Below are positions 9,526 to 51,600 of a stretch of DNA of 64,000 nucleotides, in pieces. Position numbers and translations under genes: made by a program. Positions within the stretch are counted from its first letter, which is position 1. The number at the start of each line of letters is the position of its first letter. The notes below the pieces were generated by a model. It did no database searches, was not told where the DNA came from, and saw only the letters and a program-made list of their open reading frames with translations. The DNA lies in the NCBI GenBank assembly GCA_050084515.1, contig CM114271.1, positions 2,232,001 to 2,296,000 on the forward strand. The letters run 5' to 3'. The stretch comes from Blasia pusilla (Eukaryota).

Positions 9526-9735
9526 TCAAGGAATCCAAGCAAGACGTTGAGTCAAACATACCATGTACTACTCTCATAAATATCCATCACCTAGTCCTAG
9601 TATGGTGGCCGCACTTCTGGCTAATTCACACAACATACAATGCAAGCCTATAGATATCCTAGCCAAACTTAGGTCAAGTGCTCCATCAATGTTGAAAAGG
9701 TGACAGGACACCCATAGTACTTCCAAAATATACTA

Positions 9736-9870
9736 TGTTGTGCGCATACATATCGCTACACAACATACATCGCTGGTCGCATCTACACCACACAACGCCG
9801 ATCTTCCTCACACAAGGGTTGATCCACACATGTATAAAAATCAACTCATACATATACATGGAGATCACAC
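9736..9870 (-). repeat. Left terminus of element 1: inverted copy of repeat A (17917-18052)
   Basis: The reverse complement GTGTGATCTCCATGTATATGTATGAG...GTATGCGCACAACA aligns over ~135 bp with 17918-18052. Confidence 0.93.
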
Positions 9871-10559
9871 CTCGGGCCAGCCCCCCCCCCCTCCAACGTG
9901 GTAGGACCGGACGTGGTGGAAGGTCAACGTGGTGACAAGGCTACCAAGTGGGGGTGGATGTGGTGGAGCTGAGTACGTGGTAGGAGTGGAACCATACCAG
10001 GTTGAGTCAGGTTACAGGCCGCGTGTGGGGATAGGCGGAGAGGTTTGCGCGACATGATGTTTTCGGGCATGACGAGGATTTGCGAAAATTGACGATGGAG
10101 TGTCAGTGCGCATGATGCCGACGGGTTGTCCGCATCTGTTGACGGGAGGATCGACCCGTTGGTTGAGGAGAGTGTCGTGTTGCAGAGGTTGCCGTGTCAC
10201 ATGAGGGAATGCGTGTTGACGATGCAGTAGGTTGGAGGGCGTGATCAGGTTACCCATTCGAGTCCTTTTTCGCACTTGTCGTGTGTGATTGAGAGTGTTG
10301 GATATCGGGTAGTAGCTGGTACTAGGTGGGTGCAATGATGGTGACGAGTGTAGATTCTGTTCATGTGTAGCATGTTGGTGGATATACGGCGGTTGCCACA
10401 TAGGGGTCGCATGTATGACCGGAGAGTGTCGCTAGGTTAGGTGAGTAAGTTGGGAGGCTTATGGTGAGCCCGAGTGTCGAGGGTGCATGAGGTCGGGTAT
10501 GTCATCACGAGACTGATGTTAGCATAGGTGAGCTAGTGAGGAGTGTGGGAGACTCTCAG

Positions 10560-12200
10560 TGAGTCTGAGTGCTTGAGCGGATGAGATAGGGTTTGTCATC
10601 ACGGCGTTCTTCCAGGGTTCAGAAGAACAAGGTAGTGCAAGCAGTGGTAGTGGTGTGACACGGAGTGGAGTGAGATACCGAGGGGTTACCAGTGAGGAGC
10701 TACCTTGACATCCATCCGTGGTTGGATCGTCATCACTAGACAATGGGTCTGGTGACAAGATCGCACACAGAGACAGTAGTACTTAGCAAGAGATGGACGA
10801 CATGGGCCATCGGGGCATGCGTCGTTTCTTGAGTGTAGTGGGCACCATCGACTTAGATGATTTTATCGAGGAGTTCGACACATGGTGCAACTTTGAGGAG
10901 ATACGGACTCTGACATGGTTCAACCCTTTCATGGCATGGAAGGGGTTGTTCCAGCACTTGGAGGGTTCTCTGATGGATGACTACATGGAGTTTTGATCAC
11001 TATATTCAGTAGAGATCGATGCCTGGAGGATGTATTGGGCTCTAGGGTATGTGTCCAATAGTGGTCGCGAGGCATATGATGGCATTGTGAGAGGAGAGAG
11101 ACCCACACCATCAGCTCGGAGACTAGATGGAGAGGAGGGCAGTGAGATAGGCAATGTGGTAGAGGCCTCTGGTGGTAGAGGGCCACCCAGCTTCAGGCAT
11201 ATGATGGCACAGAAGTGGAGTTCTTTTGACAGATTGGGGAAGAGCTAGATAGGCGTGTGGTAGAGGACGACAAGTCAAGAGTCTGGTGGATTTTCAGCGA
11301 CGATCGGGTGAGAGTCTGAGAGAGGCATTCACACGCATGAGGAGGTTGATCATTGCTACGTATGGAGTGACTAAGGCACAGTTAGTCCAGTATTGGTATG
11401 GGGTTCTGGATCGAGAACTACGGAGGAGAGTCCGAGATGCGGTGTTGATTCACACAACGAAGCCCACATTGAAGGTGGTCTTTGAGTTGTCTGAGCATAT
11501 TGAGCTCAACATGAGTGAGGAGCAAGTAGTGACCGCTGGATTTTCTCGAGAGTTGACGGGTCCACGAGCGCCGGTGACCCCACAGGTGCCACAGCGAGCA
11601 CCAGTACCACGGGAGCGGGCCAATGTGCCCAGAGAGCAGGGCGGGTACCGTGAGCCTATGAGACATGACCCGTACCTACATATGTTGCCCAACAGGGACC
11701 AATGTGGTCTTGTTGGAGGTGTGGAGGGGCCCATAGGCAGAGAGACTGCCCACAGCATGGGAGAGGACCACAAGCGCCTCCGATTGCTCAAGAGCCACAG
11801 AGGATGGCCCCACCACAACACTCGTGTGACTATTGCCACAGATATGGTCACACTAGGGATAGGTGTTTTGACCTTCGCCGAGAGGCACGTCCAGAGGTAG
11901 GCCAAGGGCTTGGGGGCGGTCGTCCTGGAGGAGGTTGGGGAGTTCTTCCTGGACGTGGTGGTAGGGGACCACCACCAGCCAGAGGAGATGGAGCAGGAGC
12001 ACCAGAGCCGACTCTTCTCTCACGCATCGATCAGTTGGAGTAGAGGATTGCTGCCATGATGATGATGCAGCTTAGGGAAGGCACGGAGCTGCGAGCAACT
12101 AGTGTGACTCCAACTTCTACCTCTTACCCTGACCCGGGTGAGGATCTCACCATTATGGGGTTTATGTGTAGTGCAGCCTAGGTTGAAGCAGCTGTAGTGA
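10560..12200 (+). pseudogene. gag: gag of element 1 with two Zn knuckles
   Basis: Motifs GVTRSGVRYR and DFQRRSGESLREAFTRMRRL, plus knuckles CWRCGGAHRQRDC and CDYCHRYGHTRDRC (ORFs 10793, 11286, 11702). Boundaries approximate. Confidence 0.8.
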
Positions 12201-12709
12201 TGACTCAGGGGGTTGCGAGAGGCACCGAGCCATCGAGAGGAGTTGAGATTGACCCACTAGAGGGGACCGATGGGCGGCAGGCCAGGGTTCCATGGTCATT
12301 CACATTGTCGGAGGCACTACACACACCATCGATGGTGCCTTGACAACCAGCGGTGCCTATAGCTCAGGCATGTGCGTCGACGTCACAAGGAATGGGAGTG
12401 ACAACTCCTATGCCGGCTCGAGTGCAGTCAGTGTCGACCATAGTGTTGGAGGTGGCCACCAGAGTGAGTCAGACTCCACTATTTTCCGCCATAGAGTTGG
12501 CAATGTTAGGAGTTGGACCAGCTGAGGTGTTCCGGCTGGCCGCCACGTTGTGTGAGCGTGGAGAGGTGACTGCTTCTTGTTCAGAAGTAGTTGAGGGGGT
12601 GGTGGACTTGCCCTCAAATTTGGTGCTCGGGACGTTCCCCACAGAGTCGTGGCATGCGGCGGCGACGAAGTTGGTAGACATGCCAGCTTGACCAGCCATA
12701 GAGCGAGCA

Positions 12710-13130
12710 GTGGTGACACCTGGAGTAGTCTTACTGGATAACCGAGCTCGAGTATTTCGCTTGGTTAATCCGACGGGGATAGCATACCACCTGCAGCGCG
12801 TCCTACTTGATTCGGGAGCGCAACCCTTGATGTTAGGGAAGGCGGCGTGTTTAGCATTGGGGTTACAGAAGGCAGACATTGAGCCTTGTCCCTTCCAGAT
12901 ATAGACCTCAATTGGGGGCGTGTCACCCACGCAGTATATGACTCGACAGGAGATAGTTGTTAGAGTCCAGCCAGAGCATGCAACGGATAGTGCTATGGTG
13001 CGCACATGTGCGATTACGACACCAACTGAGTCGTACAATGTGTTGGTGGGTAGTACAGTGTTATATCCCCTAGGATTCATCCTTGACTTCTGGGAGGAGA
13101 CCATTGCTTATCGGCCAGGGTGGCGGTCAA
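12710..13130 (+). pseudogene. retroviral-type aspartic protease of element 1
   Basis: Catalytic RVLLDSGAQ near 12800 and a C-terminal YNVLVG motif. Confidence 0.85.
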
Positions 13131-13524
13131 GTAACGGCCGGATGAGTCAGTTACCCGTGCAGTTTGCGAGACGAGGTGATCGATCACGGGACGAGTCTGT
13201 GACCACGTTGGCAACTTTCACACGTAGTGTTAGCTGGCCAGGAGAATTGTTGGAGGGGAACGCACATGCAGAGGATGTCCCAGTAGCGGATAGTCCCACG
13301 GAGAGACAGGCCATGGCGGGTGTCTCTTCCCATGTTGGCGAGACCTCTTCACCATTGTGGGGTAAGACTCGAGAGCTACAGAGGAGTGCCGACGACCTTG
13401 TGAGGCAGGCGTGGAGTCATGCTTTTATCCCGGAGCAGCGAGAGTCACGTGGCGATCGGGCTCTTGGAGTGGAGACGTTGACCCCACTGGATACCGCACC
13501 CATTGTGTGGCAATGCCCAAAGGA

Positions 13525-14490
13525 GGGTGTTAGGGTGTTAGATCTCTTTGGAGGGATTAGCACCGGATTGGTTGCAGTATTGCAGGCGGGCATATGGGTG
13601 CATCAGTACCTTTATGTGGAGAGAGATGAGACCCCGCGGCGAGTATCATTACGTCACGTGGCAAGATTGGTCTAGAGGTATCTTGAGTTGTTGCCGGTAT
13701 CTGCAATACGGGGATATCAGCATACACTACCCGCCGACATCTCTTTGGTGGGGGTGCAGGATCTGGACAGAGTTGGCACCATTCATTTGGTGATTGCTGG
13801 ATGGCCATGTCAGGGTCATTCATCAGTTGGCCGAGGATTTGGATTGCAGGATCCGAGGTCAGGGATGTTTTGGGAGATGTTTTGCGAGTAGTACGACATT
13901 TGGAGGGGAGTCAGACATGTTCTCCAACATACATTTTGGAGAACGTGCCGTTGTTGGAAGACACTCGTGCACGTGTGATGATGAGTGTGCATCAGGTGAG
14001 GTCCTGGTTGGGACCTGATGTGTTGCTAGATGCGGCGAGAGTTGGATCACGTGCCCATCGTCCACGACTGTGGTGGACGAACCTGATACCATCAGAGGTA
14101 CTGAGTTGAGCATACGATGGAGTCCAGAGAGCACCACATCTCATAGTGGATGCTATTTTGGGCTCAGGGCAACGATCTCAAGTGGTGACACGGGATGATA
14201 GACCACCGTTGGCCATGGCCAATAGGGTGGGGGAGTTGAGGGCAGCCTTACCTACGTTGGTGAGCTTCCCAACATCCCATACCTTTCATTAGGGAGGGCC
14301 AGGCATGATTTGGGATGAGATGACCGGAGCATTGGAGGAGCCTACAGCAGATGAGGGCGAGCGCGCCATGGGGTTCGTTACCGATACTACAGCGGTGCTA
14401 GGGATGATTGAGGCATCCTGGAGACAGGTGTTGGGGCAGGAAATGGACCTCAACTGTCTCACATGGATAGTCAGCCTAGGTATGGCTGAG
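13525..14490 (+). pseudogene. C5 DNA cytosine methyltransferase domain (DNMT3-like) within pol of element 1
   Basis: Ordered motifs: I VLDLFGGISTG, II YLYVE, IV IAGWPCQGHS, VI YILENV, VIII AHRPRLWWTNL, IX ERAMGF, X LGQEMD. Interrupted by stops and frameshifts. Confidence 0.9.
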
Positions 14491-14861
14491 CAGAGATGGA
14501 TGCAAGTGTCATCCATGCCGTCACGTCCACGAGTTGGACCATTGCCTACAGGGTCTGTACAGGCATTGGCTGGGGGCGAGACGAGGAGAGATAGGTACCC
14601 ATGGACTTCCTGGGAGGTTGTTCGAGCAGAGAGTGCGAAGGCGGCTAGAGTAGCACATGTTCATTTTTTCGGATGTAGAGCATGGTGTATGAGGTCAGAG
14701 TGGAGTGGCTGTTGCGGAGGTGGCTAGGGTTGCAACATAGCAACCAAAGCCGGAGGCTGTGTCCTCTCCAAGTGAGGTCACGATGGAGACTTGGGAGCCT
14801 ATGATAGGTCTCAAGTTGATAGGAGGAGAGCGACGGTGAGTTCATAGGTTTCTGAGAGGGC

Positions 14862-16210
14862 ATGTGTTTGCGCACCACGGGTACGCTGAAGGGTCTCGGG
14901 ATACGGATTGAGTTGGCTAGTGATACGCTGATCTTTCGTCGATCCTACAGGTATTCTGATATGGAGCGAGCCTTGATTCAGAGCAAGAGTCAGGACTTGT
15001 TGGAGGCAGGACTTGTGGAGTTATCACATGGGGAGTATGCATCTGCCACAATCATGCCGGCCAAGAAGGATATGTATGGCAATTGGACGGATAGGCGGAT
15101 GTGTGGAGATTACCGTCCTATCGACCGACAGACGAGGTCAGATCAGTACGCCATGCCTACTCCTGAGGAGATCTTTGATGCGGTAGGGCATGCAAAGATC
15201 TTTAGTACTTTAGATCTCCAAGCTGGCTATCATCAGCTTCCTATCAGGTTGGAGGACAGGGACAAGACAACATTCTGGGGGATAGATCGGTTCGAGAGAG
15301 ATTGCTCGTATCAGTGACGGTTCTTACCATTTGGGTTGAAGAACGCGCTTGCAGAGAGTTATGGATAGGATTCTAGCTGGCTTGGATTTTGTACGATGTT
15401 ACATAGATGATATTCTTATCTTCAATTCCACGATTGAGGAGCAAGAGTGACACCTAGAGGAGGTGTTCTGGCGATTGCAGTTACATGGACTGAAGTTACA
15501 TCCAGGCAAGTGCAGATTCTTTCAGGAGCAGATTGAGTACTTGGGACACACCATATACCCGAGTGGGTTAGGCGTTCAGCACACGAAGGTAGAGGCTATT
15601 GCGCAGATTCCACGCCCTACAAATGTGAGTCAAGTCTGAGCATTTCTTGGACTGGCGAACTTCTATCAACGGTATGTCAAGGGTTTTAGTGCGATAGCAA
15701 AGTCTTTGACCTTGTTGACGAGACTTGATCAGGTTTGGTTGTGGGGAAATGATCAGGGGCGAGCATTTCAAGAGCTCAAGGATAGGTTGACGTCCTCACC
15801 CATTTTACAGAGACCGGTTAGGGGTTGCCTATTCCAGTTACATACGGATTCGAGCATGTTGGGTCTAGGAGCACTGCTTACTCAGAGGGATGACGAGGAG
15901 AGGGAGTTCGTTGTGGCTTACGCGAGCCGATCGAACAACATTGCAGAGTCGAAGTACAGCTCCTACGAGGGAGAGTGCTTGGATGCAATGTGGGTTGTGG
16001 CACATTTCATATGCTATTTATTTGGAAACCCTTTCACACTTATCATTGATCATCAGCCGTTGAGGTAGTTGATGGAGTCTGACAAGCTTACGGGAAAACT
16101 TGCCAGATGGGCTCTATTACTACAGGAGTATGAGTTTGAGGTGGTTCATAGGCCAGGTCGGCTGAACCAGGATGCGGATGGGTTGAGTTGTAACCCATGT
16201 CCGAGTCAGA
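14862..16210 (+). pseudogene. reverse transcriptase and RNase H of element 1
   Basis: RT motifs RMCGDYRP, FSTLDLQAGYHQ, LPFGLKNA and CYIDD (~15397-15411). RNase H motifs FQLHTD, YEGECL, IDHQPL, NQDADGLS. Confidence 0.93.
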
Positions 16211-16559
16211 GAGACAACACAGGAGCTCGATGGCACGGAGAGAGTGATGAGGAGATGATGCCCGGTTGGCATGCATCTGCCTATCTTTGTTGGTTGACTA
16301 TGGCAAGTCAGCCACATGTGATGACTCCAGTGGTGGGGTTGGATGATGAGTCTTTGGATCCAGAGGTCAATGAGGAGGCGACAGGTGGTCGTGATATCCA
16401 TGACGACATGGAGGTTGTGGAGTTCTTGCGCACTGGCATCATAGCGAGCACAGTGAGTGCTAGGGAGCGGGATCGGATCCTACAGAGAGCCAGGAGGTTC
16501 AGGTGGGAGGGGACTCACATTTTGCGGGTATGGGGAGATGGTAGGATACGAGTGGTACC

Positions 16560-17833
16560 TCATCCTTCCCAGCGAGCACGTGTAGTGCGACATACCCATG
16601 AGGAGTTGGGACATTTGGAGTAAAGCGTACTTACAGCTAACTCCAGATTCAGTATTGGTGGCGCGGCATGCATACTGGGGTACAGTAGTTTGTGGCCAGA
16701 TGTATGGTATATGATAGAGTGCGAGCATCCTTCAATGCTCCCACTCCGCAGTTACATCCCTTGCCGATTATGGGTTTAGGTTATCGGTGGAGTTTAGACT
16801 TTGCGGGACCTTTGTCATTGACGGGGCGTCATCATAGATACGTGTTGGTCATGGTGGAGCATTTCTCCAAGTGGATAGAGTTGGTGGCACTATCGGACAA
16901 GGCGATCGAGGGAACAACTTATGTGTTTCTAGATCGTGTGCTTAGTCACTTTGGTGCACCGGCGGAGGTGTTGACTGACCAGGGTACGGAGTTTAGAGGA
17001 GAGTTTCAAGCATTATAGATCAGGCGCTGATAGATCACCGCACCACGTCCAAAGATCATCCTGAGGCGGATGGGTTGGCGGAGAGAGTGGTACAGACGGT
17101 GAAGAGAGGATTTCGCAAGTATGGCTTGCAACGGGGACAGTTGAGGGAGTGGGACCTACAGTTGTCATGGTTGGCTATGGGTTATCGCTTTAGTCGGCAG
17201 GCATCCTTGGCGTCATTTTCACCGTACTTTTTGCTCTTTGGGAGAGAGCCAAATTTACCTGTAGCGATTCGACGTGACATGGAAGAGGTATTAGATCTTG
17301 ATGATCAAGATGTGTGGGTACAAGCATGTTCTCAGAGGGCGGAGGTTATTCGTAGAGTTATGCCTATGGCCTTTGAGAACTTAGCTATTGCTCACCATAG
17401 AGATACATTGAGGTACACGACCATTTGTGGAGGAGATTATCGTCTAGGGATTAGGAGGTTTCATCCTAGAGACTACGTGTATTTATAGCAGGCGACATCC
17501 ACGACGCTAGATGTCATTGCAGGGCGCACGATCCTATGTGTGCGCGAGGTATTATCGACCGGAGTCCTCATGTTGGAGGGACGGGATGGTATGGTTTGGA
17601 AGGATCATGTGCGCAATTGTGTGCCATGTCATCTTCCGAACGTAGATGGGACAGTGGATCCGAGCTTGGAAGTGGTACCTACAGACTTGAGGTGTATGTT
17701 GTGTGGATCTGCGAGGGGTGCAGCCACCATGTTGGTATGTGATGGTTGTTCTCGAGGATGGCATATGTCATGTATGACCCCCCCCCCCCTCTTGATGTAG
17801 TTCCCACAGAACGATGGATTTGTCTGAGATGTG
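16560..17833 (+). pseudogene. DDE integrase with C-terminal PHD finger of element 1
   Basis: HHCC-type HEELGH...C region, core WSLDFAGP / LTDQGTEF / GLAERVV, then C4HC3 PHD CMLC...CDGC...WHMSC...WICLRC (17692-17833). Confidence 0.9.
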
Positions 17834-17916
17834 TACAGGGTAGTAGGTCATGTCAGAGAGATGTGATATTTTCTATCTGGAGTTGGAGGGATCCAACTGC
17901 CAACTAGGGGGGCGGT

Positions 17917-18254
17917 TGTGTGATCTCCATGTATATGTATGAGTTGATTTTTGTACATGTGTGGATCAATCCGTGTGTGGGGAAGATCGGTATTTTGTGG
18001 TGTAGATGTGACCAGCAATGTATGTTGTGTAGCGATATGTATGCGCATGACAACTGTCACATCTGAGTAGCTGATAGGCCGAGATCTATCGTGGATAGAG
18101 CGTAGGAGCCAACAGACTATCTTGAGTGTAACTTTGTCCCACGGTGTCGAATGAGGTTGAGGATAGGTCCATTATGTCAGGAACGACGTTCCTAACACAA
18201 TATCCACGCTCTATCCACGATAGATCTCGGCCTATCGGCTACTCAGAAGTGACA
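17917..18254 (+). repeat. 3' region of element 1: A (17917-18052), AC spacer, B (18055-18103), 102-bp spacer, inverted B (18206-18254)
   Basis: The 49-bp B arms match as an inverted repeat with 2 mismatches. Junction reads CATGACA-AC-TGTCAC. Confidence 0.93.
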
Positions 18255-19158
18255 ACTATCACGTTCGTATAAACAAGAGGATGCTCGATGGTAATCACGT
18301 ACTCTCAAAATAATGGGTCATATTATAACATCCAATGTGATGAGTAAAATCAGATGCAACCTCTGCATCATTGGCGGATGGCCTCCTCCCTAAATAATCG
18401 CATACTTGAATGTGTCCTGATTTTGTGCACTAGCGAAGTTCTAAAATTCTATGGGCATAACGTTCCAAAATAACTCGTTATGTTGAGAACATGTTTGCAT
18501 CCGCACATTAGGGTCATTGAGATTCAACACCCCACAAATATCCTCATGGATTGTCATAGGTGAATTGGGCATTCATTCATAGAGCAAAAAGTAAGTTGAA
18601 AAGGATAAGTCATGGTAAATGAGACATAGGATGAGATAATATTGAGGCCTTAGAGGGGTCTTGTACTTCTCCATTTTGAGAGGTCATATGTAACCTGCTC
18701 TTAGAAGATGACCTACGAGCGTCGGTCACCCTTTCTTTTATGCGGAGTGATAATCTCAGAGAGGTTAATCCTCTCATCCTTTGTATGTAGCCACTTGGGC
18801 CTATACGATTTGAGGGTTAGTTGGCAGTTGGATAGGTGTTGGTCTTGTGAGAGGATCAATGTATAGTTGGTAGGGATTTAGTACCTTGAGTACTCCTGGT
18901 CACTTGTGACTTGTTAGGAGGAAGTTACTTGTGTGCATAGTTCATCCATGGAAGTGCCCAAGGGGCTTACCTTGAATGAGGTTCATTTGGAGCTTATCTT
19001 CTATAGTACAGATCTATATTAAGATCTGTAATACAATGCAACTTGCATGTATTGAACCTAGAGTCTCTCTTGTAGAGTGGGATAAGATTGATCAGAGATC
19101 ACACATTGAGAATTCATCGCATATTATTTCTTATTGCTACTATCGTGTGTATCATTGA

Positions 19159-20190: not shown

Positions 20191-21221
20191 AACTATGCAA
20201 AATCTAACTTCGAACCTCTTGTTTTAATTCATACTAGTATCATGCATGTGTTATGCATGGACGAGGGAAAAATTTTCCTAGCACCCCTTAAGTCTTTAGC
20301 CCTTTTTATTGAACTACTCTTACAATATAGCATGTGTCAACAATAGAAAATCTTTCAAAAGATATGTGTCAACAGTAGAGGAGGGTTTCTCCAACCCCAC
20401 CATATGTTAAAATTAAAATTTTAAAAATTTATTTGACCCAAAAGTTTTATTTTTTCTGAAACGTGTCGTGCGAATCCACATCGTCATACAACATACATCG
20501 CTGACATACCATATTCACATACATACATAACATAGACGAGAGCATCCACAAACACAAGTGTACCACGACTGAAATCCGTGTAAGACCTACTGTCATAAAA
20601 CACGTATAGAATCACATACAATCGAGCCAAACCCACTCCACAATGGAAGAATCCAGGTCGAAGCTTGTGGGAGCCACCATAGCCAAGAGCTCTACTCACT
20701 ACCAAGGCTAACTCCCAACGCAATAGGCTCAAATCAAAGAACTAACTGTTCTTTGAGTGCACTCCACACTATATCCTCCAACCTAAGAGTGGGCTCTACT
20801 GGAAAAGTTATCCTCAACTAAGTAACCCCCAACCTTATGTATAAAACCGCATCTCTACCTAGACACTACGGCCCTACATAAGGTATGGCCTCTACTAGCA
20901 CACTATACTCTACGACATAATCCGTATGGTCATGACAGCTGTCGTGCAAATCCACATCGTCATACAATATACGTCGTTGACATACCATACTCACATACAT
21001 ACATAACATAGAAGAGAGCATCCACAAACATAAGTATACCACAACTCGCCCCCCTTACTGGCGGTTAGATCCCTCTAACTCCCAAGTAGCCCTATACATC
21101 TACTACATGCTATACACCTTCGTGGGTGCACGAATCAGAAGGCCGGATGCTAGGTTGCCCCATCGTAAGTCGCACATCTGTAATCCATATCATGCAAAGA
21201 TCAAGTCATCTACCTCTCCTA

Positions 21222-22165
21222 AATACATCAAGGACAAACCCACCTTCCAGTAGGAACAACATCCATACGTGGAGTCAAACACATCATGTGCCAACCCCTA
21301 GAACACCGATCACACACCAACATACGGGTTGCGTTACCAACAGACCCACACAACATGCACCTCAAGCTAGCACGTATCATGGCTAAGCTTGGGTCAACAG
21401 TACCATCTACATTTGGAATATGACATGGCGCACAATTACGTACGTGGTCCTTCCAAAAAACTCCATCACGACCCTCCAACATGAGAACTCCAGAAGCTAA
21501 CACCTCGTGCACTCGTAAAATAGTGCGGCCTGCCGTCACATCCAACGTTGTTGGTGCAATCTGCTGCAAATAGACATAGTCCCCCACATGGAACCTACAA
21601 ATCGATGGTCGATAACCTCCACCCCGAATGGTTGCATTCCGCAACGTATCCCTGTGTTGAGCAATGGCGAGGTTCTCAAAGGCTGTTGGCATAACTCTCC
21701 AAAAGAGCTCTGCCCGCTGAGAACACACTCTCATCCACATCTCTGGGTCATCAAGGTTCACCACCTCACTGGACTTCCGACAATTCTTCTTTGGCAAGTC
21801 CGGATCTTGGCCATATAACGTAAAAATAAGGTGAGAAGGAAGCCAAGGATGCTTGGCGATCGACCTATACCCCATGGCTAACCATGGCAACCGAATATCC
21901 CAGTCTCAAGATGCCCCTTCTGTAGGCCATACTTGCGCAATGCCCTCTTCACCGTCTGAACCACACGCTCAGCCAAACCATCCGCCTCTGGATGATCTCG
22001 AGACGTGGTCCGATGATCAATCAACGCCTTGTCATACATGACCTGAAACTCACCCTGAAACTCTGTACCCTGGTCGGTCAGCACTTTAGCTTGTGCACCA
22101 AAATGACTAAGCACTCTATCAAGAAACGCATACGTCGTTCCCTCACTTGCCTTGTCAGGTAATGC
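21222..22165 (-). pseudogene. integrase core, C-terminus and PHD finger of element 2
   Basis: LTDQGTEF...GLAERVV; PHD CMLCGSVGNATRMLVCDRCSRGWHMMC...WVCP*C. Confidence 0.9.
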
Positions 22166-22980
22166 TACCTCCGATAGTAGTTTGCCAATCCCATGAATGC
22201 CCGAACTCTACTCACATCTGTCGGACGCGGAATAAGTGCAATAGCGTCCACCTTTGCTTGCTGAACTCCCAAACCACCTGGATAGATCACATGACCCAAG
22301 TACTCAACATCCTCATGGAAGAACTTACACTTTCCTGGATGCAAACGTAGACCATGAGCTTTCAACCGCTCAAACACAATCTACAAATGTATCTGATGCT
22401 CCTCCACCATGTTACTGAACACCAAGATATCATCAATGTAACATCGAACAAAATCCAACCCTGCTAGGATCCTGTCCATCACTCTCTGAAACTCGGCAGG
22501 TGCATTCTTCAACCCAAAGGGTAAGAATTTCCATTGGTACAAACAATCCTTGCCATGAGAGTTGACACCCCAAAATGTTGTCTTGGCCTTGTCACTCTCT
22601 CGAATCGGCAATTCATGGTATCCTGCCAGAAGATCCAAAGTATTGAAAATCTTTGCCTGTCCCACCACATCAAAGATCTCCTCAGGTGTAGGCATGGCAT
22701 ACCTATCGGCCTTGGTTTGCCGATTGATAGGACGGTAATCTCCACACATCCGCATATCCGTCTAGTTGCCATGCATATCCTTTTTAGTAGGCATAACAGT
22801 GGCTTATGCATACTCTCCATGCGACAAATCCACTAATCTAGCCTCCAAAAGGTCCAACGTCCTACTCTGAATCAGGTCCCTCTCCATATCACTATATCGG
22901 TAGGGACGACGAAAGATTGGCATATCATTAGCCAAATCAATCCGTATATCGGGTCCAACCAAAACACCCAACTCCTTCAT
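22165..22980 (-). pseudogene. reverse transcriptase of element 2
   Basis: RMCGDYRP, LPFGLKNAP, CYIDD, EYLGH, GLANYYRR. Confidence 0.93.
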
Positions 22981-23369
22981 GCTAAAGGCAAAACAACTCT
23001 TATAAGCATATAGGAACTCTGTCAAGCGTCGTTTCTCACCTCCCGTAAGCTTGGGCCCAAGTAATGGCTCCCAAGTCTCCTCCACTGATACACTAGAGGG
23101 AGAGGACAATGCCATTGGTCGCACATAACCCCTCACAAGATGGTACACCCTTAGCTACACCATCAGCTGAGCAAATAACTCCTCCACCAGCATGAGCAAC
23201 CAACTCCACATGCCCAGCCATTACATCCCATTTACTCCAAGGATGCAAAATACTACTCTCCTCGCCCCCAACCGATGCCTCTACCGTCGCGGTAGCCATC
23301 GAGCTCATCACAAGGGGTGGAAGACCCACAGACATAGTCCGAAGTCGACGCTGCTCGGCCATACCAAGA

Positions 23370-24330
23370 CTCAAAATCCAAGTCAAACAATTCAGGTCCA
23401 TGGCCTAACCCAACACATGAGGTCGTGAAGCCTCAGAAATGGAAGCAACCGCTGTCACACTAGTAGCAAATCCCATTGCACGCTCTCTCTCATCAGTGTT
23501 AGGCTCCACCAACTATCGCACATGAGAATCCCATACAAGCCCGGGACCACCTTCCCTGTAGGTATGTGACGAGGGAAAACTCACAAATGTGGGTAGTGCC
23601 ATCCTAGGCTGGCCCACACGGTTCACCACTGCCATGGGTGACCGATCAATAACCCTCACCACCTGAGAAAGTCGCCCAGTATCCAAGATACTATCCATTG
23701 TAAGGCAAGGTTCCCACTGCACTGCATCATATGCTCGACGTAGAACCTCCCTAGGCAACAAGTTTGTCCACCACAAGCGTGGACGATGTGCACGCGAGCC
23801 AACTTGCGCTGCATCCAACAACACCGCTGGTCCAATCCAAGACCGCACCTCATGAACACTTGCCATCATCCGGATCCGAGTGTCACCAACAATGGAACAT
23901 TCTCCAGAATGTAAGATGGAGCACGTGCTTGATGAACCTGAAGATGTCGTAACACCCGTAACATCTCCCAAAATAATCGAGACCTAGGGTCGTGTAATCC
24001 CTCAATACGACCAGTACGTGTATGACCCTGACATGGCCATCTCGCAATCACCAAATCCACAGGACCAACCCTCTCAAGGTCCTGCGCCCCCAACAATGCA
24101 ATGTGTGACGGCAAAGCATGCTGGTATCCACGAATAGCTAATGGCGGCAACAACTCAGGATATCTCCGCATCAACTGACCAATATGTCGGGATGAGACTC
24201 TCTGGGCCGTCTCATCTTGCTCCACATACACGTATCTCCGCACAAGAATACCGGCCTGCAACATTGCAGCCAAACTAGTGCTAATTCCACCAAAGAGATC
24301 TAACACACAAATGCCCTCCAAATGGATCTT
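23370..24330 (-). pseudogene. C5 DNA cytosine methyltransferase domain of element 2
   Basis: VLDLFGGIS, YVYVE, DLVIARWPCQG, YILENV, AHRPRLWWTNL, ERAMGF and LGQAMD in order. Confidence 0.9.
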
Positions 24331-24682
24331 CGCCATACAATGGGTGTAGTATCCAAAGGGGATAACCCAACTGGACCAGAAGTAGGAGTCCGCCATGGGG
24401 ACTCCTCTTCCTCGTGAGGTATAACAGCCTCACACCAAGCCTCCTGCACTAGGCGATCAGCCTCCTGCCATAGTGCACCGCCTGAACTCCAAAGTAGCAC
24501 ATACAACGATGAGGATGCCACAATTTTGTAGCCACTGCTACAAAACTAGGGACCTCCTCTACCTCCTCATGTACAAGAGAATCTACAGCAGAAACATTAT
24601 CCTCCAAAAAGTCTCATGGCCAAGTGACTACTCCACTAAAACCAGCCACAGATGCTAACACCGTTGGGAAAGACCCTCCTGG

Positions 24683-25105
24683 TCAAGCCCCATAAATAAA
24701 TCTCACAGGAACTTGGCTCATACGTCCATCCCCGGACTGCCAACCAGGTCTATAAGACGCTATCTTAGTCCAGTAATCCATATGAAAACCCATCGGGTAC
24801 AATATTGCTCCTCCAACTAGTACATCATACGACTCGGCTGATGTGACCACTATAGGTACTCCCAACCGGGAGCTATCAGTCGCATGATGTGGTCTCAACT
24901 GTACAGAAAACTTCTCCCATGTCATGAATTGAGACCTATCATTGGCTCCTCCAAGTGATGTTTGAATCTGGAATGGGCAAGGCTCAAGCTCTGACCTCCG
25001 AATACCCAAACCAATACATGCCGCCTTTCCCAACATCAAAGGTTGGGCACCAGAGTCTAACAAGACTCTATCTAGTCTATACACCTGTCCTGTAGTACTC
25101 AACAA
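24683..25105 (-). pseudogene. aspartic protease of element 2
   Basis: RVLLDSGAQ...YDVLVGG. Confidence 0.85.
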
Positions 25106-25559
25106 TCAGAATATCCCACTCCGGTTGTCCAACATACATACACCAAGTGTAAGCCTCTTACAATCAATGGCTGGCTGGGCTGGTAATGCATCCATCTTTG
25201 CCGCTGCTGCCTACCAAGTAGCACTAGTACTCAATGCTACACCTGACATAGAGGGTCGCTCCACCACAACACCATCATCCACCTCAGCACATGTAGCAGT
25301 AACACCCCCACGTTCACACAACGTGGCTGCTAGCTGAAATACATGAGCTAAGTCAACTCCTAAAGCCATCACCGTGGGCAGAAAAACAATGGGAATCCTA
25401 ACACCGAAGTTGCCATCCACAATATCAAGATGGATGCTACATCCATGTCTACTACACGCGATGTAGATGCCTCAGTCCCCACTGTAGGCTCAATAGGCTG
25501 CGTAGGAACCATGGATGGAGTCCTAAGCACCTTAGACAACAAGAATGATTGGGGAAGCC

Positions 25560-27208
25560 CAGCCTACCTCCCAGCCTCACCCCTCTGTGGGTCCAACTCC
25601 ACAGTAGCACCAAGTAGCTCTGACGCTCGAGTGGCCTCTCGTAACTGCAGCTGATGCCTTAACCTGTGGTGCACTCGCCATATAAGAGAGATGATCCCCT
25701 CCATAAGAGGTGGAAGCCCCTGCTCCCGAACCTGCTCTATCCTGGATACCAGCCATAGTAGCCAACTTCTGCTCCAACTGCTAAATCTTGGCAGCCATAG
25801 CTGACTCTGTCGTAGTGGTAGGGGTAGCCACCGTAGGCTCTCCAACCACAAGTCCACCTCTACCACCTCTACCACCTCGACCTCTCGGAGCTACTCCACC
25901 ACGGCCGCGGCCTGATCTCAACTCTGGATGAAGATCAAAGCAACGCTCTCGAGGATGACCTGGTCTCCCGCAATGATCACACTGAGTTGGGGCCGACTGA
26001 GGCCCATCCTCCAAAGTCCGTCTCCCATCCTCTTGGGGACAAAACCTCTTAACATGATCACCTCCACACGTCCAACATGACTGTCCTTGCTGCGGGGCAG
26101 CAAATGAAGGCAATGGTCTCTGCGCAAGTGTCCCTCTAGGACCTGACTAAGGTTGTGTGTACCCCCCACCACTCCCACTACTACTACTACCACCACCACT
26201 ACTACGAGAATGTGAGGTGGACTGCTTAACACGAGAAGTAGTAGTTGTATCCCTACTGAATGTGGATGTCACCACTCTCTCCTCCACTATGTTAAGCTCA
26301 ATCGTCTCAGATAGAGCAAACACATGGGTCAATGTGGATGAATCATCACTCATAAGAGTAGCATCACGTACCCTGTGGCGCAACTCTTTGTCCAAGATCC
26401 CATACCAAAACTGGACTGCCTAAGCCTCAGTCACATCCTGGGTAACTGAAATCAAGCGTCGCATACGAATGTAAGCCTCACGAAGACTCTCACCAGTCTT
26501 TCGCTCAAATTCCTGAAGACTTCTCAACTTCTCTGTCTTCACTCCTTGATAGTTCTTCTTCAACCTCTTGAAGAACTCTGCAACCGGGTTGAACGATGGT
26601 GGGGCACTAGTACCTCCACTAGTACCCCCACTAGTACCTCCATGGGTACCTCCACTGGTACCCCCACTCCGGCTCGTACTCGTACCACTCAACGTCGGGT
26701 TGGCTGGCATAGTAGGAGCACTACTACCAATACCACCATGGGTGATAGACACATAGCCTGGAGACCAATATTGTCTCCACGCCTCAATCTCAGCACCATG
26801 GTCCTTCCTAAACTCATGGTAATCATCCATGGGTGGTCCCTCCAAGTGCTGAAACAACCCCTTCCAAGCCAAGAAGGGTGTAAAAAATGTGGCGTTTTGC
26901 AACATTTGCATATCACACCACGTATCAAACTCCTGCATGAAGTTCTCCAACTCAATGGTGCCCACTGCACCCGAGTATCGTCGTGGGCCCTTCATGGCCC
27001 CATATATCCCGTCCATGTCCCAAATCAATGGAACTGCAACACTCGATAACAACGTAGAAGACTCGGTGTTTGGAACGCCCTCGTCCTCCTCTTCTTCAAT
27101 CGTCGGAAGTGGAAAAGGTAGCCGATACCTCAATCCACTCCGTGTGAAACCACCAGTGTCCGCACCACGGTCCCCAACCAGACCACCAGACAGCTCCGTG
27201 ATGACCAA
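25560..27208 (-). pseudogene. gag: gag of element 2
   Basis: ORF 26420-27208 (GGFTRSGLRYR...FERKTGESLREAYIRMRRL) and knuckles CWTCGGDHVKRFC and CDHCGRPGHPRERC. Confidence 0.82.
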
Positions 27209-29226
27209 CGCCGATGCCGCACCACCATCAAAAAGTAACCAAGTGACGTCGATGCCGCTGTACTATTCTAGCTCTACTAGCTATGGATGTAGGCAACCTA
27301 ACCTGTCATCACCACAAGAAGCCCCCCACGGTCTACTGGTCATCACTCCAGCCTCACTATTGGTAGCATACAGGAGTAACACTACTCTGGAAATCAGCGT
27401 CAACCCTAACAATGGGCGCGCAAGCAAGAAGCATCGATGGAGGGGATCCAAATACAGGATGTCCAACGACAATCCTCCAATCACAAATGGAAATCAAGGT
27501 AACACAATCCACCAAACGTGGCGCCCCCTGAATCCACAGAACCCACCACACAATTCTAACGTAATAGCTACTCCGCCGCGGGTCGATGACGTGCTAGTCG
27601 GACTCGCAGCACCTGAAAATATCACATGCATGGAGAGGCTACACCATACTATGCGTTAGAGGTCCATCAACCAAAAACCTGAGATGCATAAAACGCCTAA
27701 CACATCTCCAAACAACACCAAATGAGCTACACCAGTGTGTACACTAGCATAGTTAAGAACTTAGCAGTTAAGCGTCTTCTAGGCAGAATAGCCCAAAGAT
27801 GGGTGATCAGTTATGCAACACTCAAATCAAAAATCTTGCAAAAAATGCCTCACGCCCAAGCAAGCAAGTTTGCTTGCTTGCTCCTTACTCCGCCTCTCAC
27901 GCCCTCACGCCCACTCGCCCACTCGCCCCGAGCTACCACAAGTTGCCTCGAAGCCTCGAAGTCTCGAAATGCTTGAGACTTACCCCTATCGCCACGCTTT
28001 GTCATGCTTCGCTATGGAGAGAGGCCCAACCAGGGCACCCCCAACGGGATAGGCATCTCCAACAATAGACGAATCACCAACCAACCAGCCCCTCCGATCT
28101 GCTGTCCACCATAGCCAGACCTTGAGCTAGTCCGCAAAATTTTGATCAGCAATTACTCCACAAATCCTTGACCAAAATTGAATCTATTTCAACCAAAATT
28201 CAATTGATCACCATAGCTATCTCTCCACAAAGAATCAGCTTCAACCAAGCTCTGTACTTTGAGCTAAAAATCAGACAAACTTGCTGTCCATACACCTCCG
28301 AAATTGCAAATCCGACAGCGCTTCTGCCCAGATTCATGCACGCAAAAATCCGCAAGGCTCCACACACTCAAGCAGATAGCTTCACATGAGATCACAATAC
28401 AAGTAGCAATAGGAACCTCTCACCCGATCTGGATGAACTTCAACAGAGCTTCCGCACTCCAAGCTCTCCACATCAGAAAACCGCCGAATACGAACCAGAA
28501 TCTTCAATCCTTGATAACTTCCAACTCCCTTGACGGAATCCGGTGATCTAAAGCGCGGTGGAAAGCTCTCAGCAAGGCGCTTCTTTCCCAACCAACCACG
28601 CACCAGATTCCCACCTCCAACATAGGCCAAAAGCCACGAACATCCACTGTTGATTACACAATCAGCCCTAACAAGATCCTATTGATCAACAATCGAAGCT
28701 ACCATCGATCTACTCTAGTTCTTTGAATGAAATCCGTATAAGACCTACTGTCATAAAACACGTATAGAATCACATACAATCGAGCCAAACCCACTCCACT
28801 ATGGGAGAATCCCTGTCGAAGCTTGCGGGAGCCACCATAGCCAAGAGCTCTACTCACTACCAAGGCTAACTTCCAACGCAACAGGCTCAACTCAAAAAAC
28901 TTATTGTTCTTTGAGTGCACTCCACACTATATCCTCCAACCTAAGAGCGGGCCCTACTGGAAAAGCCACCCTCAACGGAGTAACCCCCAACCCTATGTAT
29001 GAAATCGCATCTCTACCTAGACACTACGGCCCTACATAAGGTATGGCCTCTACTAGCATACTATACTCTACGACATAATCCGTATGGTCATGATAAACGT
29101 AACTTAAAAAATCCTTCCCAATCAAGCTTGAAAATTCTTTAAGAGAATCACAAAATATTTTTTAATGATGTGGAAAAAAAATTTGATTGAAGAAGTCTTG
29201 AGAAAAAATAAAAGATATTCTTATTA

Positions 29227-29760
29227 TCTATATTATTATTGGAAAATGCCTCTTCATTTTGTAAGCTCCTCTCCTCTTGATACTTGGCATTTTCAGCCAA
29301 TGGGATCATTTGCATTATGGGCCAATAAGATTCTCAAAATTGATTTAAATGACATTTGAAAACTGTGAGATTTAATTAGGAGACGTATTATAAACATGTA
29401 CATTCCACAGGCTTATACCAGTTATTATTGTTGGAGAGAGCCGTTTCATTTTGCAAACTCCTCTCCTCTTGACACTTGGTACTTTCATCCAATAAGATTT
29501 CTTGTCTTCTAAGCCAATATGATCGCTCGGAATTGACTTTAAATGGCACTTGAGAATTTTGAGAGTTAATTTTTTTAAGAAATAATTTAAACTTGTGTAT
29601 CCGATGAGCTTACACTAGTTATTATTATTGTAGAGTTCTCTTTGGGTTCTAAAGACCTCTCCTAGTGCCCTTTTGATTTTTCAAACACCTCTCCTCGTGA
29701 CATATGGTATGTTTAGCCAATTAGGTATGTACATGTGCCTTTGGATAATTTAGAATTAAT
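29227..29760 (+). repeat. Head-to-tail array of three ~195-bp Helitron-like units
   Basis: First unit starts A|TCTATATTATTA. Units share CTCCTCTTGA(C/T)ACTTGG...CCAAT, and the first two end ...TATACCAG and ...TACACTAG. Confidence 0.55.
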
Positions 29761-30213: not shown

Positions 30214-31007
<794 letters not shown>

Positions 31008-31150
31008 TTTGCCACCATAGAGTACAAGAGTAGCCAAAAGCCACTTGTTGGTGAAAGGGGTGTTGCTAATAATAATATAGATTTGCAATCCCAAATATAT
31101 GGGATTGCAAATCCATCTCATATACTAGGATGGATTCGCAAAAACCCCCA

Positions 31151-31364
31151 TCTATATTATTATAGGAGAGTGCATTCTTGATTTGCAAACATCTCTCTGC
31201 TTGATACTTGGCAACTAGGCAACAAAAAACTATTTCACATGCTACGGGCAGCAAGAAAAAATTTGAAATTGTGTGTAACATCATTAATCTCTTCCCTTCA
31301 TGGGCTATACACTAACTCTTCAAACACTTTTTAATTTTCCATGCATCACGAGTTACACACTAAT
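31151..31364 (+). mobile_element. Non-autonomous Helitron-like repeat
   Basis: A|TCTATATTATTA start and GGGCTATACACTAA-type end. Related copies at 38551-38739, 40442-40670 and ~61410-61571. Confidence 0.55.
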
Positions 31365-48686: not shown

Positions 48687-51600
48687 TGTCACGATTGTTA
48701 GGATAGATCGGTCGGATCTAGAAGAGCGTCTTCACGAGTAGTGGAGGAAATGCCCAAGAGGTCGAGAATGACCTACTGAGGCCCCGGGAAACCTGAGAGA
48801 GCAGGTTTCCCCTTCGTTTCGGCTCATTTGGAGCCATATAGAAAAACTTACTATTTCGGGTAAGTTTCCATGTTAGGGATAGTTGACTTTATATTTTTGG
48901 TAAGTGGCCCTTGACCTCCTACATCAGGTCAAGAGCCAAGGAGGTGACTTGGGAGCATAGGTTACCATGGAGGGAGCTTGGGAGAGGGGAGGGGTATACC
49001 GCAAGGAGAGAGAGCTTGAGAGCTCATTCTCTCTTTGTTGAACTTCTTGGCATGAGGCGGCGGAGCTATGGTCCCTTGCCTTGTGAGTGTAACCCAAACC
49101 TCTCATTAGGAGAGTGGGTTTGGTTTGACATGAGAGAGAGTGCACACCTTTGAGAGCTATGGTGTGAGATGGTGTAGAGAGAGATTGGATCTTACTTTAC
49201 AAAGAGAGAGTGAGAGAGCTTCATGGGGGAGCTCGCTGGTCACTCGCTGTTTTTGCAGGTTGGGGACCATGTTTCCCGTTCAGCGGCTCATGGGAGTGCT
49301 CACCGGAGCAAGAGCTGCTTTGATTGTTCTTCGCATTTGCCAATTTTTCGTGTGGAAGAGTGGCGCGCGGAAGCGCTGCCTAATTTTTTACAGGGATTTA
49401 GTATGGGGGCGGGTTGCCCCATGCCGGTGCTCTTGGGAGCACCATGTAGCTTGCTGATTTGTATTTTTACAGGTTTTACATTTTTGTTGGGAGAAATCAG
49501 CGCGGAAGCGCTGCCAAATTTTGTATAGGAGAAAGAGACATTGGGCTTTACGACAATCCCCATCAGTTTTTACTGGAATATCCAATTCTGAATGTTTTTG
49601 ACTTTGTTGTAGATCGTGAAGCTGTGCACGTTGTGCAACAAACAATGTGCAATTTGGAGTTGCGAGCAAAAAGTTATGGTCAATCTTACAAAACTACCAT
49701 TGCTACGTGATTTTTAGGGTTAAATTGTTCAAACCCTAAACCAGCCGTCATAGTCGCCGTCGACGGTCAATGGTCACCGTCACCGTCACCATCACCATTC
49801 GGCCGTCACCATCAACGGTCCACCGTCCGTTGTCCACCCTTTGGTTGCCATTGCCACCATTATGGAGTGGAGGGTCTTCCATGACGTTCGTTGATTCTCT
49901 AACTTGCGTCGCCACCAAGTACTTTGTTTTTGCCGCCACCGTCATCACAGTTTCGTCATCAACCAGTGATGGTTGATGACCTCTGGTTATGGTGTTTCAG
50001 TTTTGATTTCATGCTACTATGTTGTGATTGGTAGCCGCTCGACGACGATCGAGTACCGTGCCGTGACGCCCGTAGCCGCAACGCGCCGCCGATTGCCGCG
50101 CCGTGCCGCTCGTGGCTGCACCGCACTGTCTCGATTGCAGAGCCGCACCATCATTGTGGAGCAGAGTGTGGGTTTATTTTTTATTGAGAAGGGTATGCCG
50201 TCGAGTGTCGCATCCCACCATCGAGGGCCATGCCGTTCATAGCCGTTCCGTGCCGCCTGCAACGCCGCACCGTTCCGCTGGAACCGCACTATCTATCAAG
50301 AAGTTTTGAGAAGCGTCAGTATGGGAGGAGTATGACTTGCTGATTGGAGGAGTTATTTCCACAACCAAGTTGGGGTCGAGATTTGCAGTTTCTGAGGAGA
50401 GACATCGACATGTGTTCAACTTACCCATTCCGATCCTTTACCCTGCACGTGTGAGGGATTCTAGGATTTGGGTAGTTTATTTGGGGATATTGGATATGTG
50501 AATGCTCATTTATGTATGTGGTTAAGGGACATAGACTTGTGTGGGATGTCCCGAGTTGAGAGTAGGTTGTCGATGAGATGATAGCCCGGTCGATTTGCGG
50601 CATCACGCCACGAATTGCCGCACGTTACACGTCTCGGGGAGGCAGAGTGTAGATCGAGTGCCGCATGTTTGGGATGAGTGATTGAGGGATTACTCACAAG
50701 GTTCAGAGTGATCGGGTGAGAGGGGCACGAGGGTCATTATGGAGTCCATTCAGGACTTTGAGAGGCAAGGTGGTGAACCCGAGAGTAGCTCTAGAGGTTT
50801 TACGCGGAGTGGCGCGAGGTTTCGAGGGTCTCCACATGAGGGACCACCTCGACCTCCTTTTGTGTCATCGTCAGACGAGGGGGAGGGTGTAGAGGAGTTT
50901 GTGAGCACATCGCCACACATTGTGAGTGGTCCTACCAATTGGGTGTACGAGATGGACGATCGGGGTAGAGGACCGCGTAGGTTTCCAGGTGTAGTAGGCA
51001 CGATTGAGTTGCACCATTTCATAGCAGAGTTTAGGAGTTGGTGCAACTCCCAGCGGGCCAAGAACTCTAGAGAGTTCAACCCGTTTACAGCATGGAACGG
51101 TATGTTCCAGCATTTATAGGGGGCGCCCATGGACGATTACCATGAGTTCTCTAAGAGATATGCAGGTGAGATCGAGGCGTGGAGGCACTACTATGACCCA
51201 CATTATTTGTCATGGACGGAGCCGTTCCCAGATGAGGAGGAGGAGTCAGGAGATGCTACTTCCTCTTCCACTAGTGACGTTTTAGGAGGGGTCACTCGTA
51301 CGGGAGCAGTTGCACCCTCTAGTCGGATTCGTCCCAGGTTCAACCCTGTGGTTGAGTTCTTTGTTGAGTTGAGGGCGAGATACCAAGGGGTACGGACGGA
51401 GAAGTTGCGGAGCATCAACGACTTTCAGAGGCGCTCGGGTGAGAGTTTGTGTGAGCCTTATACTCGCTTGCGCCGGTTGATCAACATCACTTAGGAGGTG
51501 ACAGAGGCTCGGGCTATCCAGTCATGGTACGCGATGCTGGACCGGACCCTATGGACACGGGTGCGGGAGGGGGTGCTTCTTATGAACACCTCCCCTACGT

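Follow-up and report, generated by a model that had tools for sequence, protein, structure and literature searches.

Gypsy elements with a DNMT3-like domain and DIRS-like repeats were already published by de Mendoza et al. in 2018 for KnitGypsy-Dnmt3 of Klebsormidium nitens, and the same paper proposed, for related cases, that the DNMT acts on cDNA in the particle; its text and readable supplements make no mention of a PHD finger, and its Fig. 4c may show one (PMC5890265). Chromoviruses have a chromatin-type domain at the integrase C-terminus, and among them Tcn1 and Tf1 prime themselves without a tRNA site; the accessible text of the survey by Neumann et al. 2019, which required a 5'/3' LTR pair, a target-site duplication (TSD) and TG...CA ends, mentions neither a PHD nor a methyltransferase (PMC6317226). 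LTR elements that unite a chromatin reader with DNA methyltransferases were described as EpiLTRs/DAM-LTRs, the 3' end of pol encoding a chromodomain, DAM and an enzyme related to DNMT4; in the accessible part of that work, the streptophyte Gypsy-DNMT3 is treated as a separate capture and no PHD domain is described (10.64898/2026.05.21.726589). The idea of an element-encoded writer dates from 2018 (PMC5890265) and that of reader-plus-writer retrotransposons from 2026 (10.64898/2026.05.21.726589). Retrotransposon PHDs have been called widespread, including those of CR1-like LINEs and Chlamydomonas REM1 (PMC6673714; also 10.1101/2021.11.30.470311), and the accessible part of a further paper adds no PHD or land-plant case (PMC12344493).

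The family described here, found in a 64-kb stretch of Blasia pusilla DNA (the window), has a genuine PHD finger in the position of the chromovirus chromodomain, and it differs from chromoviruses in having this PHD instead of a chromodomain, a DNMT3-like domain and split repeats; from EpiLTRs it differs in combining a PHD with a DNMT3-like enzyme. In CR1-like LINEs and REM1 the PHD is encoded by ORF1 or by an antisense ORF of its own, and it lacks the fusion to a DDE integrase, with a DNMT alongside, that is seen here. With respect to KnitGypsy-Dnmt3, the DNMT of the window family is cut off from the reverse transcriptase (RT) by a conserved stop in the same frame, and in Blasia pusilla we observed great abundance, self-primer complementarity, TSDs and an internal att junction. 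DIRS elements have a tyrosine recombinase, no DDE integrase and no TSD, whereas the window family has rve and H2C2 domains, no recombinase match on the sense strand and a TSD of 4 bp in 27/32 copies with both ends (one further copy has a 3-bp artefact and four have none). The literature searched, which left most subscription papers, Repbase reports and figures outside it, yielded no account of an integrase-terminal PHD with DNMT3, of read-through, of self-priming or of circle-opened LTRs in this clade.

Three members of the family lie in the window (Table 1). Element 1 is a TSD-flanked copy whose coding part runs in the opposite orientation to its two outer ends. Element 1 had also been considered as a DIRS1-type element with inverted terminal repeats, which this internal inversion ruled out. 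Motif I of its DNMT lies at 13541 and the catalytic PC near 13805. Element 2 has lost RNase H (RH) and the integrase (IN) zinc finger through a deletion near 22170. Matches to Retrotrans_gag and gag-asp_proteas were weak and were seen in copy L038 and in the relative P0062, respectively. No chromodomain was matched in any frame of the three elements, nor in an intact RH-IN-PHD ORF.

Table 1. Positions of the three elements and their parts within the 64-kb window.
Feature	Positions	Strand	Remarks
Element 1, Gypsy-DNMT3-PHD copy	9736..18254	+	decayed
Element 1 TSD, 4 bp, ACTA	9732-9735 and 18255-18258		
Element 1 repeat B, outer end	9736..9869	-	93% to B1, inverted
Element 1 gag region, two CCHC-like knuckles, degenerate	10793..11900 (approximate)	+	translation
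Element 1 aspartic protease, DSG motif	12740..13100 (approximate)	+	translation
Element 1 DNMT3-like C5 cytosine methyltransferase	13535..14480	+	broken by stops, frameshifts
Element 1 candidate read-through stop, family-conserved TAG then CAR-YYA, DNMT/RT boundary	14738..14746	+	
Element 1 reverse transcriptase	15111..15556	+	PF00078, split over two frames
Element 1 RNase H	15742..16132	+	PF17917, PF17919
Element 1 integrase: H2C2 finger, DDE core (rve), long helix, C-terminal beta-barrel	16614..17692	+	
Element 1 C4HC3 PHD finger, integrase C-terminus	17693..17832	+	frameshift in C run 17778-17789
Element 1 polypurine tract	17906..17914	+	
Element 1 repeat B1 (5' part of U3 in model)	17919..18052	+	
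Element 1 B/A junction GACA-NN-TGTC, both integrase ends abutting two bases apart	18049..18060	+	
Element 1 repeat A2 start, cut by inversion	18055..18196	+	
Element 1 repeat A start, outer end	18206..18254	-	
Element 2, A1-coding-PPT-B1-A2-B2	20464..29095	-	4-bp TSD 20460-20463, 29096-29099
Element 2 repeat A1	28728..29095	-	93% to A2
Element 2 DNMT3-like domain	23390..24310 (approximate)	-	
Element 2 PHD finger	21225..21359	-	one stop, 21228-21230
Element 2 repeat B1, directly after PPT	20940..21043	-	
Element 2 repeat A2	20570..20937	-	
Element 2 repeat B2, outer end	20464..20567	-	
Element 3, member of the family with 76% to element 1, extending from gag to the integrase C-terminus	50700..57386 (about)	+	breaks off just before PHD

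The first-pass annotation of this DNA had placed a C4HC3 PHD after the integrase of elements 1 and 2, at the chromodomain site of chromoviruses, and had named a PF00628 scan and structure prediction as ways to check it; the domain passed both. The finger of element 1 has C4HC3 spacing from a first Cys at 17693 to a last Cys at 17830-17832, and its first six and last two ligands are read in different frames because the frame changes within the run of 12 C. All eight ligands of element 2 (21359-21225) lie in a single frame, which a TGA interrupts once, between the last two Cys. The PF00628 model scored 33.5 bits for element 1 (E 4e-8, model positions 1-31 of 47) and 43.5 bits for element 2 (E 3e-11, positions 1-47, stop read as X) with respect to a cut-off of 24 bits, and when all six frames of the window were scanned by pattern, no PHD beyond these two came up. 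The predicted fold of the intact integrase C-terminus plus PHD of another copy had pLDDT 83-96 over the finger, which superposed on the PHDs of BHC80 and BAZ2A (2puy, 4q6f, 5t8r) with an rmsd of 1.1-1.4 A over ~50 residues; a structure search with the same model also returned the Ty3 and foamy-virus integrases. We sampled 40 further copies from the genome, chosen by score or for long open frames, plus 33 upstream stretches. The PHD was in frame with the integrase C-terminus in all 40 own copies having both anchors and in 30/33 metagenome loci, and its first six ligands were kept in 37/37 copies, the last two in 36/37 and 35/37. Between subfamilies the dN/dS of the PHD was ~0.09, a value obtained with synonymous sites near saturation and biased low because the copies had been picked on the PHD region. 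Judged from these substitution ratios, the PHD was under purifying selection between subfamilies, as was the DNMT.

Within the own genome, which comprises 390 Mb in 26 contigs, searches returned 11,659 and 10,660 first-look candidates, which are not copy numbers, and the 150 candidates scored per search showed 82-96% identity, besides the query's own copy. Outside this genome, 61 long relatives included 58 with PF00628, 56 that align to the DNMT and 53 with both; those with names come from Pleodorina, Tetrabaena, Cymbomonas, Tetradesmus and Pseudoscourfieldia, with a partial Klebsormidium protein. An RT-RH query containing no PHD matched proteins of Calypogeia and Marchantia first, with 85-86% identity, and after them those of Closterium and Klebsormidium, and 38 of the 45 matches with enough sequence had a PHD by pattern after the integrase core. 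From these matches, the pairing of PHD and DNMT3-like domain is clade-wide, green algae included. A tree of 159 RT sequences split 151 family members, K. nitens proteins included, from 8 outgroups with FastTree support 0.994, these outgroups being chance sequences with no REXdb reference elements among them, and it grouped the window family with liverwort proteins (support 0.929). We infer that the K. nitens RT proteins in the clade are KnitGypsy; the K. nitens protein GAQ92009.1 shares the domain order DNMT-RT-RH-IN and is 48% identical across RT-RH. Nothing follows the PHD in the window family, and one algal C-terminal tail had no Atlas match at >=0.9. Selgy elements were considered as PHD carriers and found unsupported, with 0 mentions of PHD in the accessible text of the chromovirus survey (PMC6317226).

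The C5 methyltransferase lies between protease (PR) and RT in elements 1 and 2. Its PF00145 score was 17.5 bits in element 1, below the cut-off of 22, and 25.4 bits in element 2. For the DNMT of another copy the nearest solved relative was DNMT3A (E 6e-15), with DRM-type chains at 6e-8 or weaker; motifs I, IV, VI and VIII align to DNMT3A, and motifs I-VIII stand in order, not permuted as in DRM. The coding order is gag-PR-DNMT3-like, a conserved in-frame stop, and RT-RH-IN-PHD. This stop occupies one codon in 14 of 15 other element-2-type copies, any other codon being a stop in at most 5 copies. It reads TAG-CAG-CCA in the element-2 type and TAG-CAA-CCA in 12/14 element-1-type copies, including the one at 14738, while the full motif is missing by pattern in 6/16 element-2-type copies; metagenome loci have the stop at the same place in 14/15 cases, followed by CAA-CCC rather than CAR-YYA. 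Tobacco mosaic virus and Sireviruses use CAR-YYA to signal read-through, and no paper on this signal was found in the literature searched. Natural ORFs comprise gag+DNMT (1,254 aa), RT-RH-IN (934 aa) and RH-IN-PHD (690 aa). The end of the DNMT is in frame with the RT in 7/16 and 6/13 own copies and 9/11 metagenome loci, and since such counts over distant anchors are mixed, continuity in a single frame upstream of the integrase rests on the long natural ORFs. The stop is not universal, DNMT and RT sharing a single ORF in the relatives P0062, P0001 and the Klebsormidium protein P0058 (with RNase H as well in P0062 and P0058, not so in the window sub-lineage). The single polyprotein of the first-pass annotation would thus be made in the window family only by read-through.

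We then considered what the PHD might read. PHDs that read H3K4me3 have an aromatic-cage Trp two residues before the His, a position taken by Gly, Ala, Leu or Pro in 56/56 long relatives and 38/38 RT-query relatives; at the level of sequence, the classic H3K4me3 cage is ruled out. The nearest solved PHDs by sequence (DPF2/3 PHD2, CHD4, ATXR5, KDM5A/B PHD1, BAZ2A/B and BHC80; E 1e-11 to 1e-15) are near in fold too and likewise lack the cage tryptophan, and they are mostly readers of the unmodified H3 N-terminus. A predicted complex between the PHD and host H3(1-30) scored 0.39, the best control 0.01; the mark for this score was reached by 51/78 solved and 2/108 mismatched pairs, and passing scores of at most 0.60 came from just 5/78 solved pairs and from all 4 passing mismatches. 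The runs shared at least 94% of contacts, with a partner pLDDT of at least 54. The complex gives weak support; similar complexes are solved, so the prediction may reproduce known structures. Unmodified H3K4, read as a chromatin tether for the integrase, is our best single guess for the target, held at a little under even confidence.

A competing and distinctly less probable reading is that the PHD of the land-plant/charophyte sub-lineage reads histone tails no longer and owes its retention to binding something else, be it DNA, a host protein or the intasome itself. BAZ2A, DPF3 and KDM5 PHD1 have an acidic wall, used in reading unmodified H3, that the window's PHD does not: its C2-C3 loop is without an acidic residue in 37/37 own copies and 48/50 metagenome loci, and the RT-query relatives have one or none in 28 of 38 cases, many with loops rich in Lys/Arg, while 52/56 long relatives (algal where named) have at least two (Asp/Glu). 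Neutralisation of the acidic patch, which lies ahead of the first strand, moved the KD of BAZ2A-H3 binding from 48 to 810 uM, but PHDs binding H3 in extended or bent form also lack the wall, according to the accessible text of the same study (PMC5415848). The weak score of the H3 complex would suit a non-histone target, whereas retention in 37/37 copies of the Asp that follows the third Cys, and of the Trp that closes the finger, argues against it. The first-pass annotation had also pointed to animal DNMT3 with its PHD-like ADD domain, which shares a mature protein with the catalytic domain, and had proposed that reader and writer could target integration and mark new copies. In the coupled form of this idea, the PHD would read the H3K4 state and steer the element's own DNMT, new copies being targeted and marked by one machine. 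PHD and DNMT do share one protein in 53/61 long relatives, the DNMT lies nearer the PHD, between RNase H and integrase, in 46/62, and the PHD is of a type that reads unmethylated K4, as the ADD also does. In the window family, however, ~1,000 codons with RT, RNase H, integrase and the conserved stop separate the two domains, and because this stop divides gag-PR-DNMT from RT-RH-IN-PHD, the PHD is not an ADD-like module; retrotransposon polyproteins are, moreover, cut by their own protease. The PHD is kept without a DNMT in 5/62 relatives, and across the RT tree the DNMT occupies two different positions while the PHD is always at the integrase C-terminus, which argues for two separate jobs. The proposed pairing of reader and writer stands as co-occurrence across green plants and is unsupported as ADD-like coupling, which we regard as quite unlikely; PHD and DNMT probably work separately. 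Least credible of all, and very improbable, is that both domains are passengers without function for the element. Every window copy is broken and dN/dS within subfamilies is mostly 0.5-0.9, as passengers would have it, but between subfamilies the DNMT gave 0.20-0.22 in two blocks (motifs IX-X were left out, as was RNase H, for saturated synonymous sites), close to the RT and integrase core at 0.10-0.19, and the low ratio of the PHD points the same way. Retention of both domains from prasinophytes to liverworts largely refutes passengers.

As for the activity of the DNMT, C-to-T decay amounted to 6.9% at CHG, 5.9% at CG and 1.3% at CHH sites. The family copies were methylated; a host pathway explains this pattern, which does not identify the methylating agent. 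CpG observed/expected was 0.55-0.79 in the elements, the same as the 0.62 of the rest of the window, and so gives no sign of self-methylation. By analogy with the cases discussed in 2018, the DNMT most likely acts on cDNA within the particle.

The ends of the family follow the layout A-coding-B-A-B, with A1 at the 5' end and B1-A2-B2 at the 3' end. The repeat arrangement A1-ORFs-B1-A2-B2 that defines Gypsy-DNMT3 was found in element 2 and 29/42 copies, three metagenome loci with both ends were alike, and six TSD-flanked copies have the form A-coding-B. The outer ends are TGTC and GACA, and both meet internally at B1/A2, two (rarely three) bases apart, in the palindromic junction GACA-NN-TGTC. 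A polypurine tract (PPT) immediately precedes B1, and inspection by eye of 32 rows saw no TGG of a tRNA primer site after A1. Instead, 11-16 nt inside A are complementary to the bases by the end of A1 in 23/28 copies, while 0/280 control 22-mers had a match of at least 11 nt. This putative self-primer differs in sequence between the two subfamilies, the 3' end of the match lies at most 2 bases from the end of A, and a TATA-like box stands ~30 nt upstream in 16 of the 23 copies. The geometry of Tf1-type self-priming is the same as this arrangement of A and A1. Self-priming has also been predicted for Tcn1 (PMC6317226).

Stranded RNA-seq was available as three runs from a like-labelled species, which have the species label alone in common with the best genome matches and may not be from this organism. 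Sense reads covered 30/30 bins of one copy (5,262, 5,149 and 5,607 reads), the family being transcribed as sense full-length RNA. Reads over either end of the stretch ending ~40 nt inside B2 numbered at most 15, 4 and 10, with a depth of 130-210 in the B1/A2 bin, which is a weak test. A pile-up of read starts was seen at L038:9049 in two of the runs. Among indexed data, a search listed no RNA set with the family.

If reverse transcription ran in the ordinary way, primed where A1 ends and with the PPT just ahead of B1, both cDNA ends would have B+A LTRs. We lean, by a narrow preference, towards circularised cDNA opened by the integrase inside the LTR as the best explanation of the observed ends. 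When a CA-NN-TG junction is cut behind each CA, the overhangs are two bases long, as at a processed retroviral end. To our knowledge, circular cDNA has long been thought a dead end for LTR elements. The opening of a circle needs an unexplained asymmetry, since a closed two-LTR circle has two equal junctions and the mirror product A-B-A-coding-B was seen in 0/33 copies with a 5' end. An alternative that we consider improbable, yet better placed than ADD-like coupling, is replication of DIRS/PAT type, in which the RNA spans A1 to B2 and the B1-A2 joint serves as the template to rebuild the ends, with no LTR-type intermediate. DIRS elements have been described with this repeat layout (PMC5890265), no permuted copies were seen, and the A2/B2 joint is nearly uniform across copies, a uniformity that also fits inheritance through RNA. 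Private substitutions shared by A1 and A2, 15 in 13 copies and 16 in 7, are spread over the full extent of these repeats, and those shared by B1 and B2 are rarer (3 in 18 copies, 2 in 11) and lie in their 5' third; the latter speak against DIRS/PAT-type replication, as do the DDE integrase with no tyrosine recombinase match, the 4-bp TSDs, the PPT right before B1, the self-primer ending at the end of A1 and, as a weak test, the few reads past the A2/B2 joint.

With the circle as the preferred origin of the ends, the observations can be arranged in a four-step model. The RNA would start in A and prime its own reverse transcription as Tf1 does. Read-through would then yield much Gag-PR-DNMT and little RT-IN-PHD, so that the particle would be rich in DNMT, which may methylate new cDNA before or at insertion; such Gag-level dosage is inapplicable to the 46/62 long relatives with the DNMT between RNase H and integrase. 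The cDNA would carry ordinary B+A LTRs, its two ends would be joined, and the integrase would cut the palindromic B/A junction inside the left LTR to give A...B-A-B; a one-LTR circle cut at the same junction would give A-coding-B, which recombination could give too. The PHD would remain on the mature integrase as its chromatin tether, with nucleosomes that lack H3K4 methylation as the most likely anchor, and in the land-plant sub-lineage this tether may be weak or use an altered surface. For this model as a whole, in a green-plant Ty3/Gypsy clade whose PHD and DNMT do separate jobs, we find the chances evenly balanced. A fuller statement seems tentative and on the doubtful side: that an ancient green-plant LTR lineage has its att sites inside the LTR, opens circular cDNA at GACA-NN-TGTC, sends methylated arrivals through a Gag-level DNMT3 made by read-through, and aims its integrase by the PHD at chromatin without H3K4 methylation, with algal members adding an adenine-type methyltransferase behind the PHD.

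In conclusion, the window layout would probably fail a survey such as that of Neumann et al., because an LTR pair with TSD and TG...CA ends was required there (PMC6317226). LTR finders would probably miss the family, so that repeat catalogues of bryophytes and counts of DNMT3 genes may be wrong; one Marchantia gene model contains this DNMT together with an RT. Given ~10,000 first-look candidates and elements of 9-10 kb, the family's share of the 390-Mb genome may be large. The end structure bears on the old question of whether a DDE retro-integrase uses a circle junction in vivo, and the contrast between acidic PHDs in algae and neutral or basic ones in land plants lends itself to the study of a change in reader specificity. 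If true, an integrase-borne PHD, retained together with a DNMT3 all the way from prasinophyte algae to liverworts, would be a third way in which retrotransposons deal with host chromatin, beside chromodomains and methyl-CpG domains.

Comparison of the family with its relatives revealed two sites for the DNMT. It lies upstream of RT in the family studied here and in Marchantia, Klebsormidium and Closterium; in 46 of 62 relatives, whose named members are chlorophytes, it is placed between RNase H and integrase. Relatives with the RNase H-DNMT-integrase order form a single clade (53 tips, support 0.987). DNMT motif IV is EC, not PC, in 19 of 56 relatives.

At least 250 residues follow the PHD finger in 36 relatives (including the proteins P0004, P0020, P0041 and P0048), and FxGxG-like and SPPF/SPWF motifs were seen in the three tails inspected. 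MethyltransfD12 matches in these tails were weak (E 0.004-0.04) and below the cut-off, and the Atlas leads for the tail were N6-methylase clusters (score 0.87). In algal members, the integrase-PHD segment may thus be flanked by two methyltransferases, one of C5 and one of adenine type.

Several family copies have an inverted interior or A/B ends in inverted orientation (window 9870-18205, in element 1; L041, L051, L054, L057, L061, L068 and L072). Such rearrangements may be due to integrase activity at the internal junction or to auto-integration. Six copies flanked by target-site duplications end at B1, giving A-coding-B (L023, L024, L041, L043, L051 and L058); these could derive from one-LTR circles that were cut open at the junction, or else from subsequent B1/B2 recombination. 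In repeat A of the copy L038 (9066-9091), the primer-binding sequence has a second, local copy immediately 5' of the self-primer; the self-primer could pair with this copy as well, giving a hairpin that is possibly a switch or a relic.

Element 3 is flanked by a direct repeat unlike A or B, which replaces its PHD region, and part of its RT is duplicated nearby. Loose ends of mapped RNA from the like-labelled species resemble sequence 3' of window position 57639. The dispersed AT-rich repeats share a 45-64-bp end motif and are MITE- or Helitron-like.

Repeats and open reading frames in the window
Feature	Position	Remarks
Direct repeat around element 3	48945-49199, 57386-57639	255 bp, 98%
Duplicate of part of element 3 RT	48094-48419	90%
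Dispersed AT-rich repeat family	29221-29635, 31136-31302, 38241-38663, 40426-40599, 61399-61488	
Perfect tandem repeat	30556-30771	unit ~50 or 100 bp
Several long overlapping ORFs	61035-63994	both strands
Imperfect palindrome	61279-61531	250 bp

Finally, two annotated Marchantia polymorpha genes (P0122 and P0130) contain the family DNMT together with RT and RNase H; these genes may inflate DNMT3 counts or may be domesticated pieces.
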